A stretch of DNA of 64,000 nucleotides, taken from the NCBI GenBank assembly GCA_964557575.1, contig CAZLBC010000017.1, forward strand, positions 4,227-68,226. The letters run 5' to 3'. This stretch comes from an uncultured Planctomycetaceae bacterium. GTDB lineage: Bacteria > Planctomycetota > Phycisphaerae > SM23-33. Positions 9,142-11,493 of this stretch are shown here, piece by piece (positions within the stretch are counted from its first letter, which is position 1; every line of letters begins with the position of its first letter). Under the pieces are notes generated by a model. That model was not told the DNA's origin. It searched no databases and saw nothing but the letters and a program-made list of their open reading frames with translations. The translations under genes and the position numbers were made by a program.

Positions 9142-9398
9142 TGCCAACTCCTTGATTTGCACTATCTTCCAGACACCCTGCACACACCGGGTATAGAATA
9201 CTGCTGCATATAAACATTTACCGTTATTATAAGCATTTATCGGCAACTTTAACCACACTTCTTTCTTATTTTTACTAAACACAAAACAGCAGAATAATCT
9301 TATATACTGCCGGTATTCACGTCGCAGCAGCACGATACACACCACAAACCCCGGAAAATACCTTGCAATGTGAATCCGTATATGGTTTCATTTCGTAC

Positions 9399-9526
9399 GC
9401 ATCAGGAATTTCCGGCACGCACTGAGGCCGGGATGCCAACCGGGGGCGGAGATCCCACGGTGGCAGGAGCGACGGTGCAGACGCCGCTCGATGTGCGAGG
9501 TAAACGCCTCGAACAAGAATCTCCGC
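9399..9526 (+). ncRNA. SAM riboswitch aptamer, SAM-I/IV-type architecture
   Basis: P1 GCAUC(9399-9403)/GAUGU(9490-9494); J1/2 AGGAA; P2 9410-9433; P3 core GCCAACC(9435-9441)/GGUGGC(9459-9464); P4 9467-9489; P5 9496-9511; 8-bp pseudoknot GCGGAGAU(9446-9453)/AUCUCCGC(9519-9526); lies upstream of a Cys/Met PLP enzyme. Confidence 0.85.
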
Positions 9527-9533
9527 GAACGAT

Positions 9534-9563
9534 CCGTCGCATTCCTGGTGCGGCGGTTTTTTT
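9534..9563 (+). terminator. Intrinsic terminator of the riboswitch expression platform
   Basis: Stem CCGUCGCA/UGCGGCGG followed by 7 U; 9541-9552 is complementary to 9398-9409 (antiterminator). Confidence 0.8.
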
Positions 9564-9623
9564 ATGTCGTCGCCCGGGCCGCGGATACCCGGGCGCGTGT
9601 CGCAACGTACAGGAGAACGGACG

Positions 9624-10772
9624 ATGATGATGAAGCAGCCCGACCCCCTCACCCCCTACGGCAACCGGCCGATGGTCACGCCCATCGTGAACGCGGTCAA
9701 CTACGAGTACCTCGACTTCGACGTGCTCAAGCAGATCACCGACGGGGAGGTGGAGGGGTACACCTACCACCGGGACGACAACCCCACGGTCCGGGCCGTG
9801 GAGCGGGTCCTGGCCGGCATGGAGGACGCCGAGGACTGCGTGCTGTGCACGACGGGCATGGCCGCGTGCACGATGGTCTACCTGACTTATCTCTCGGCCG
9901 GGGACCACGTGGTGCTCTTCCACGACATCTACGGCGCGCACTACAAGGTGTCGCTCATACTCGAGCGGCTGGGCGTGGAGATCACCTGGCTCGACGCCTC
10001 CGCGGCCGACACGCTCGATGAATACGTGAAACCGAACACCCGGATGATATTCATCGAGACGCCGACCAACCCGCTGTGCAAGATGATCGACATCGCCGCG
10101 ACGCGGAAGACGGCCGACAGCGTCGGCGCCATGCTGATCGTGGACAACACCTTCGCGACCCCCCTGCATCAGAAACCGCTGCACCGGGGCGCCGACCTGG
10201 TAGTCCACAGCGCCACCAAGTGCCTCGGCGGCCACAACGACCTCATGGCGGGCGCCGTCGCCGGGTCGAAGGAGGACTACGAGAAGCTCTGGTTTACCCG
10301 CCAGGCGATCGGGACCACCCTCAGCGCGTACTCCGCGTCCCTGCTCGAGCGGGGACTGAAGACCTTCAGGCTGCGGAGCGAGAAGATCTCGCACAACGGG
10401 CAGGCCATGGCCGAATTCCTGGCCGGGCACCCGAAGATATCCAACCTCCGCTACCCCGGCCTCCCGTCCGATCCCGGCCACGAGATCGCGCGGCGGCAGA
10501 TGACCGACGGCTACGGGGGCATGCTGGCCTTCGACGTCGGCGAAACGATAGACGACGCGAAGGAATTCATCGACCGGCTGAAGGTGATCTACCACGCCGT
10601 CAGCCTCGGCGCGACCGAATCGCTGATCTGCATCCCCTACCTGACCACGATGCTCTACCTGCCCGAGGAGATGCGGACCACCTTCGGGGTCAGCCTGAAC
10701 ACCGTGCGGCTCTCGGCGGGCATCGAGGACACCGACGAGCTGATCGATGATCTCCGCCGGGCGCTGGCGTAG
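9624..10772 (+). CDS. PLP-dependent trans-sulfuration enzyme (cystathionine gamma-synthase / methionine gamma-lyase / O-acylhomoserine sulfhydrylase family)
   Basis: Y.R..NPT, ETPTNP, DNTFATP, HSATK.LGGH.D (PLP lysine), SLG..ESL and RLSAGIED motifs; AGGAGA RBS at 9611. Confidence 0.92.
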
Positions 10773-10776
10773 CGCC

Positions 10777-11493
10777 TCATTCGTGAATGGCATCCCAGAG
10801 GGCCGCGTCGAACGGCGCCTTGCGGTCGCGGCAGACCGCCCGGCGGCAGAGACGGCAACTCTCGAAATCCATCGCGGTCGGAAAGCGAATGCCCGAGAGC
10901 GATTTTTTCGGCAGCATCAGGCAGGAATCCGTCAACCGGACCCCGACGAGGCCCGCGACGTCGCCGAGCAGCCCGAACAGTTCCCGCTGCTGCTCGATGG
11001 GCCACAGGGAGACGTCCCCGGAACCGGGGCTCATCGAGGAACTGCCGGCGAGGCCGTATCGGCGCTCGATCAGGGATTTCAGGCCGGCGGCCGCGGATTT
11101 CAGCAGTAATTCCCGCAGCGCGTCGAGCCGGAACTGCGCGAGTATATCGCCGCTCTCCGCCCCGAACGCGTCCGCCGCGGCGCCGCAGGTGACCACGTAG
11201 GGGAAGACGCGGTTGATCCCCTCGATGTTCCGCCGCAGCGCCCGGCTCCTGAAGACCGCGCCGCCGATTTCGACCCGGTCCTCGCCCCTGTCCTCGACGT
11301 AGCAGACGCGGTAGAGGGCCCGCGGCCGGGCCGCCGCCGTGAATGCGGCCAGGACCTTTTCGAACGCCGCCTCGTCGGGAGTGCCGGCCCGTACGCCGGC
11401 CCGCTTCATCGCCGCGCCGCGGTCAAGGGAGAAAGCGATATCGTCGATCACGACAGGGCCGTCATCGTCTTGTTTCGCCTGCGATGTCATCAT
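10777..11493 (-). CDS. Stand-alone B12-dependent methionine synthase activation-domain-like protein
   Basis: SPGSG..W.IEQQRELF, VRLTDSCLMLPKKSLSG and C-terminal C..C...C motifs. Confidence 0.7.
   Translation of the reverse strand: MMTSQAKQDDDGPVVIDDIAFSLDRGAAMKRAGVRAGTPDEAAFEKVLAAFTAAARPRALYRVCYVEDRGEDRVEIGGAVFRSRALRRNIEGINRVFPYVVTCGAAADAFGAESGDILAQFRLDALRELLLKSAAAGLKSLIERRYGLAGSSSMSPGSGDVSLWPIEQQRELFGLLGDVAGLVGVRLTDSCLMLPKKSLSGIRFPTAMDFESCRLCRRAVCRDRKAPFDAALWDAIHE

Follow-up and report, generated by a model that had tools for sequence, protein, structure and literature searches.

The family RF01725 reportedly corresponds to the SAM-I-IV variant of Weinberg et al. 2010, and the SAM-I/IV crystal structure 4L81 is said to be that of Trausch et al. 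2014. The classic S-box builds its antiterminator from the 3′ strand of helix 1. SAM-I riboswitches possess P4 and the pseudoknot PK-1, and SAM-IV riboswitches possess PK-1, PK-2, and P5 without P4 (PMC6890682). SAM-I/IV is characterized by an undivided P2, P4, and PK-2, with no PK-1 (PMC6890682, PMC2864571). The RNA in 4L81 has the order P1-J1/2-P2(GAGA)-P3(L3)-P4(GAGA)-P1′-P5(GAGA)-AACGAA-PK2 and carries C at the second J1/2 position (PMC5393176).

The window, by which we mean the whole 64-kb stretch of DNA that was analysed, contains at 9394-9563 (+ strand) what we take, with a probability of roughly 85%, to be a canonical SAM-I/IV-class riboswitch within the 5′ leader of a gene of the cystathionine gamma-synthase family. 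The initial annotation of this locus summarized the distribution of P4, PK-1, and PK-2 over the three families in agreement with PMC6890682, but considered the riboswitch a possible hybrid, with an additional pseudoknot formed by L2. The hybrid label was not retained, because P4 together with PK-2 is the defining architecture of SAM-I/IV, and the extra pseudoknot is without support. Our confidence in the identity as a SAM-I/IV member is high; that in an OFF mechanism of the termination type, which we infer, is good.

Identity and parts of the riboswitch

At gathering thresholds, a search of the 64-kb window against Rfam gave no match. A sensitive Rfam scan of 9250-9700 returned SAM-I-IV (RF01725) as the best match within the clan, covering 9394-9527 and model positions 1-99 of 99 with 35.8 bits (E = 3e-4), so that the family proposed in the initial annotation ranks first and yet falls short of the gathering cut-off of 41.1 bits. 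The alignment leaves L2 and 25 nt between P3 and the 3′ strand of P1 as unaligned inserts, and the sub-threshold score is explained by these L2 and P4 inserts. Matches of the same scan to RAGATH-5, mir-9461, and sR43 (E 0.9-6) were dismissed as chance.

A covariance model of the clade (R1) was built from 29 homologues, mostly Verrucomicrobiota, Lentisphaerae, and Planctomycetota (PVC group), with the window left out; a hand-written structure was followed by a covariance model and re-alignment. RNAalifold on a MAFFT-only alignment did not recover P4, which was misaligned there. R1 matches 9394-9528 over its full length (model positions 1-134) with 99.8 bits (E = 3.8e-23), and this is its sole match in the 64 kb. 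All of the clade-invariant columns are found in the window, as is the SAM-clan core: AUC...GAU in P1, the purines of J1/2, and CCAACC/GGUGG in P3. The "compensatory C-G swap" reported at the base of P3 is real but is the SAM-I/IV consensus of the Rfam model (gcCAACC...GGUGgc). The RF01725 alignment and the R1 score thus bear out the assignment to the SAM clan, of SAM-I/IV type with P4, P5, and PK-2, and every feature that the initial annotation had listed (core, P4, P5, PK-2, terminator, antiterminator, and L2/L4 match) lies where it had been placed. SAM binding by the aptamer would follow from its family membership.

In the aptamer (9398-9526), P1-P4 meet in a four-way junction; P5 comes next, and L3 pairs with the 3′ tail to give the pseudoknot PK-2. 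The parts of the aptamer are as follows.

9398-9403 (+): 5′ strand of P1 (CGCAUC), from the Rfam and R1 alignments; doubles as the 5′ portion of the antiterminator strand
9404-9409 (+): J1/2 (AGGAAU), SAM-clan core, in the conserved ATCARGA; pairs with 9541-9546
9410-9433 (+): P2 hairpin, uninterrupted 7-bp stem 9410-9416/9427-9433, from the R1 alignment and family covariation
9417-9426 (+): L2, 10-nt loop ACGCACUGAG
9435-9464 (+): P3, GCCAACCGGGG.../...CCCACGGUGGC (GCCAACC.../...GGUGGC), 9435-9445 with 9454-9464, from the Rfam and R1 alignments
9446-9453 (+): L3, GCGGAGAU, the 5′ strand of PK-2
9467-9489 (+): P4 hairpin, 5 + 2 bp with an A9472/C9484 mismatch, 9467-9471 and 9473-9474 with 9482-9483 and 9485-9489, from the R1 alignment and family covariation
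9475-9481 (+): L4, 7-nt loop GUGCAGA
9490-9495 (+): 3′ strand of P1 (GAUGUG), from the Rfam and R1 alignments
9496-9511 (+): P5 hairpin, 6 bp (9496-9501/9506-9511), loop AAAC, from alignments and covariation
9511-9516 (+): conserved GAACAA linker, 5′ of the 3′ strand of PK-2
9519-9526 (+): 3′ strand of PK-2, AUCUCCGC, 8 Watson-Crick pairs with L3

P1 is formed by 9398/9399-9403 with 9490-9494/9495. The seven contiguous base pairs of P2 contain neither an internal loop nor a K-turn, and the PK-2 duplex has a calculated energy of -14.2 kcal/mol.

Pattern scans of DNA, restricted to one genome per species, revealed a large clade of homologous riboswitches with the layout of the window: GCAUCARGA, P2, UGCCAACCG, L3, CACGGUGGC, a P4 hairpin, GAUGYGC, a P5 hairpin, GAACAA, and the complement of L3. 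Most of the records carry a Verrucomicrobiota, Lentisphaerae, or Planctomycetota label. Only four of 18 clear members (loci L029-L232) pass the RF01725 cut-off, with 42-46 bits, and 14 fail it, from which we conclude that the clade is systematically under-annotated. The curated Rfam threshold misses the window riboswitch together with these 14 relatives; a model specific to the clade would pick up many SAM-I/IV riboswitches that now lack annotation.

Covariation was computed on 80 distinct sequences of the alignment A3, which holds the 81 matches of R1 over 100 sources; the controls were partners slid by 1-3 columns and 500 shuffles. Standard pairs occupy 95.1% of cells, versus 36-45% with slid partners; 25 of the 37 pairs vary on both sides, and none of the shuffles reaches the observed measures. 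P2 (8/8 pairs), P4 (8/8 modelled pairs), and P5 (every pair) covary, and P1 and P3 hardly vary. PK-2 was scored by a helix search in each sequence, because its register differs by one between subgroups; at least five contiguous base pairs were found in 68 of 80 homologues, with 40 distinct helix sequences, the window having eight.

Downstream of the riboswitch lie the following features.

9611-9616 (+): Shine-Dalgarno-like AGGAGA, read from the sequence, 7 nt 5′ of the ATG at 9624
9624-10772 (+): Cys/Met-metabolism PLP enzyme of the cystathionine gamma-synthase family, 382 aa (PF01053, E = 5e-115)

The best NCBIfam matches of this protein are likewise to the cystathionine gamma-synthase family, below the equivalog cut-offs, and the regulated gene is predicted to encode a PLP enzyme of the methionine pathway. 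Its closest homologue (86% identity; L241, JGI 3300018080) has a 72-nt upstream gap and no riboswitch, and no SAM-clan match was found at six genome loci with enzymes of 70-73% identity. The association of riboswitch and gene is therefore lineage-specific. A convergent ORF of 238 aa (10777-11493, - strand), without an NCBIfam match, scores 19.7 bits against PF02965, the activation domain of B12-dependent methionine synthase, versus a cut-off of 25.

Most members of the clade are followed by a different, small ORF in place of a methionine gene; at least 28 of the 80 clade riboswitches precede this conserved ORF of 70-95 aa (for example L142:6160-6378, L163, L195, L133, and L018), an undercount since the ORF finder often chose the wrong frame. 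The motif of this ORF is (I/L)R..x..NPxHHLW(N/W)NNGTWWxHxTxH..PDxTKxRxRxSLxT...AR..RD. It belongs to no Pfam family, with a faint match to DUF6538 only, and is a putative SAM-controlled, uncharacterised small protein.

Loops L2 and L4

The only close relative found is a contig from another microbial-mat run (X3), which is about 89-90% identical over 9347-9640; no close relatives of the window riboswitch emerged from two pattern scans of metagenomes or from one of genomes. Relative to the window, X3 has one change in 108 paired nucleotides and 10 in 62 unpaired ones (Fisher P = 2e-4). Terminator and antiterminator are identical in the two sequences.

The kissing contact proposed in the initial annotation joins GCACUG of L2 (9419-9424) to CGGUGC of P4/L4 (9473-9478). 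The complementarity itself exists and comprises 6 bp including one G-U. Its loop-loop part consists of four Watson-Crick pairs (GCAC/GUGC, -6.3 kcal/mol), and the full 6-bp pairing (-9.7 kcal/mol) needs the two inner base pairs of P4 to be opened. That the window encodes a hybrid aptamer, whose fold is stabilized by such a kissing or PK-1-like helix, is the alternative that survives best, although we consider it unlikely. Against mononucleotide shuffles the L2/L4 match has P = 0.018-0.042, uncorrected for multiple loop pairs. Both loops reach at least 6 nt in only two of 54 sequences, the window being one of them, and both segments are kept in X3 while the neighbouring positions 9426 and 9481 differ.

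The homologues, however, lend the contact no support. Complementarity between L2 and L4 is 1-3 nt in 53 non-redundant homologues, and 5 in one Gemmatimonadetes sequence. Tetraloops occupy L2 in 34 and L4 in 27 of the 54 sequences (window included), 16 and 13 of these, respectively, being GNRA. For 78 unique sequences, the complementarity of a sequence's own segments is equal to that of mismatched ones (2.91 versus 2.84 for L2-L4, and 3.52 versus 3.46 for L2-P4), and the L2 of the window pairs equally well with 17% of foreign P4 sequences. Nor did the family as a whole show any signal for L2 pairing in PK-1 fashion with the J3/4/P4 5′ region. An L2 complement of 4-6 bp in L4/P4 occurs in the window sequence only.

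The X3 relative weakens it further. The window has a GCAC GCAC tandem at 9415-9422, one copy of which is missing from X3, where G9426A is also found; the L2 of X3 is therefore ACUGAA, 4 nt shorter, with the G and C of GCAC inside the P2 stem and two loop-loop pairs left. The single copy in X3 and the two in the window point to a recent 4-nt slippage polymorphism in L2. CGGUGC in the P4/L4 of X3 is unchanged and the adjoining position carries A9481G, which gives no L2/L4 covariation. Most likely, L2 and L4 are complementary by coincidence. A broader version, in which a hypersaline-mat lineage would have replaced the tetraloops with large L2 and L4 loops and tied P2 to P4 by a 4-6 bp helix, alongside the P1-5′-strand antiterminator, strikes us as equally doubtful. 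If true, the L2-L4 helix would be a tertiary brace undescribed for SAM-clan riboswitches; the interest of this locus would have lain in such a new contact, which is without support here.

Terminator and antiterminator

Between PK-2 and the gene there is a terminator with an embedded complement of the P1 5′ strand, which we refer to as anti-P1.

9534-9563 (+): intrinsic terminator, 10-bp stem 9534-9543/9547-9556, loop CCU, U7 at 9557-9563, from a terminator-site scan
9541-9552 (+): anti-P1 element AUUCCUGGUGCG, part of the terminator and complementary to 9398-9409 over 12 bp

The terminator (9534-9556 plus U7) is the only terminator-like site in the region. The long-range antiterminator that the initial annotation had described, 9398-9409 with 9541-9552, holds up as a helix of 11 Watson-Crick pairs and one G-U. 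When the 76 nt downstream were shuffled 20,000 times, its score was reached only 10 times, and the helix is present in the unconstrained minimum-energy fold of 9390-9570. Without ligand, the OFF fold (P1-P5 plus terminator) is calculated at -66.6 and the ON fold (antiterminator plus P2-P5) at -65.5 kcal/mol; the individual elements contribute -3.3 (P1), -14.3 (terminator), and -15.1 kcal/mol (antiterminator helix). On these calculated energies the two folds appear poised, and a ligand-stabilized P1 could decide the outcome.

Because of the terminator and the 12-bp antiterminator, the natural reading is the transcriptional OFF switch suggested initially. With SAM bound, the aptamer would retain P1 and J1/2, leaving the terminator (9534-9556 plus U7) to form and to halt transcription ahead of the gene. 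When SAM is absent, the weak P1 would open and 9398-9409 would pair with 9541-9552, a segment that runs from the end of the terminator 5′ strand over the loop and into the 3′ strand by 6 nt, and so block formation of the terminator (ON). J1/2 (9404-9409) is the likely toehold. Since anti-P1 spans the end of the 5′ strand and the loop of the terminator, J1/2 could nucleate on this loop before the 3′ strand emerges, although this kinetic step is surmised, and a local hairpin competing with a helix of 140-nt range could win kinetically.

A conventional antiterminator, made from the P1 3′ strand and the terminator 5′ strand, was rejected as the main switch because only a 5-bp match, UGCGA/UCGCA (9494-9498 with 9537-9541), was seen by eye. 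A search for a sigma-70 promoter gave no convincing site, and X3 does not conserve the candidate -10 positions. No RNA-seq run was found to contain the locus.

The anti-P1 element is conserved beyond the window. Of 78 loci, 70 have a stretch complementary to the P1 5′ strand and J1/2 over 7 bp or more in the following 70 nt, versus 22% for a shuffled P1 segment, and elements equivalent to that of the window occur in about 88% of homologues. Compensatory variants are found, such as AUCAAGA with CUUGGUG (Chthoniobacterales group), ACAUCAGGAA with UUCCUGGUGU, and UACAUCAG with CUGAUGUA. Of 77 loci, 41 resemble the window in having a T-run directly after anti-P1, 27 have anti-P1 without a T-run, which suggests translational platforms, and no anti-P1 was found in nine.

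Those 27 loci bear on the possibility that control in the window is mainly or additionally translational, with read-through transcripts regulated at the ribosome-binding site. Also, 29 of the 77 homologues have a second, post-terminator anti-P1 that is able to pair with a P1-like start region. The single anti-P1 of the window, in contrast, sits inside a strong U7 terminator, the start region (GGACGAUGAUG) is unlike P1, and the fold of 9557-9650 is not more stable than shuffles (z = +0.89), from which we regard translational control of this gene as quite improbable and retain the termination switch.

The second anti-P1 copy (UUCCUGRUGCG) is found just past the terminator T-run in those clade members (for example L183, L145, L171, L142, L097, and L206) and is longer on average than the first (9.1 versus 8.1 bp). 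At many loci (L183, L145, and L171 among them, by eye) the start-codon region, ACGCAUCAUG, resembles the P1 5′ strand and can therefore pair with the second copy. This suggests a two-tier relay at second-copy loci, antitermination being followed by unmasking of the start codon with one sensor strand. The window has no second copy.

A Chthoniobacterales subgroup has no terminator (L048, L133, L148, L154, L165, L192, L203, L211, L214, and L224). Here CUUGGUGCG is located directly 3′ of PK-2, the next hairpin, GUGCGUUU-AAGG-AAACGCAC, encloses the ribosome-binding site, and AAGA in J1/2 covaries with CUU. Judged by its sequence, this arrangement is presumably the translational version of the P1-5′-strand logic.

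An unrelated, abundant X3 contig (1640 nt, depth ~384) matches the window at 9557-9589 over 33 nt with three differences. The segment spans the U-tract and the start of a GC-rich hairpin, CGCCCGGG...CCCGGGCG, at 9571-9596; the match may be due to chance or to a shared short element.

That the locus is a decayed or ligand-switched relic, its structure kept and its SAM sensing lost, is very improbable: the sub-threshold RF01725 score and a G in place of the Rfam consensus A at the second J1/2 position would fit such decay, but the P4 and L2 insertions explain the score, this position is normally G in the clade (AUCARGA) and is C in 4L81, the window retains every clade-invariant column, and the substitutions relative to X3 avoid paired positions.

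Comparison with known SAM riboswitches

The window riboswitch belongs to the already known SAM-I/IV class, and the extra pseudoknot is probably chance. No description of a terminator-embedded anti-P1 platform for SAM-I/IV was found in the literature searched. As this platform is conserved and covarying in the clade, and the 5′ strand of the sensor would itself invade the terminator, it offers a clean system for studies of toehold-type antitermination.

SAM-IV (RF00634) shares P5, PK-2, and a SAM-I-like core with the window. It is without P4 and has P2a/P2b with PK-1, whereas the window possesses a covarying P4 and a straight P2; the traits that set SAM-IV apart, the lack of P4 and a P2a/P2b taking part in PK-1, are thus not those of the window.

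With SAM-I (S-box, RF00162) the window shares the ligand-binding core, the four-way junction with P4, and OFF logic combined with an intrinsic terminator. It differs in that P2 is without a K-turn or internal loop, PK-1 is not conserved, and P5 and PK-2 are present; of the two SAM-I hallmarks, a K-turn in P2 is missing, and for a PK-1 joining L2 to J3/4 there is no conserved complementarity between L2 and the J3/4-P4 region. The design of the antiterminator is reversed as well, with the P1 5′ strand and J1/2 used in the window and the 3′ strand of helix 1 in the S-box model.

The closest likeness is to SAM-I/IV. The order of modules is identical to that of 4L81, and the SAM-clan core, the uninterrupted P2, P4 at the junction, P5 following P1, the AAC-rich linker, and PK-2 are all held in common. 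Unlike the tetraloops of SAM-I/IV, the P2 and P4 loops of the window are 10 and 7 nt, respectively, and P4 is longer, which accounts for the RF01725 score below threshold; the clade of the window is only marginally detected by Rfam (4/18 above the cut-off), and in the window the expression platform consists of a terminator that contains anti-P1.
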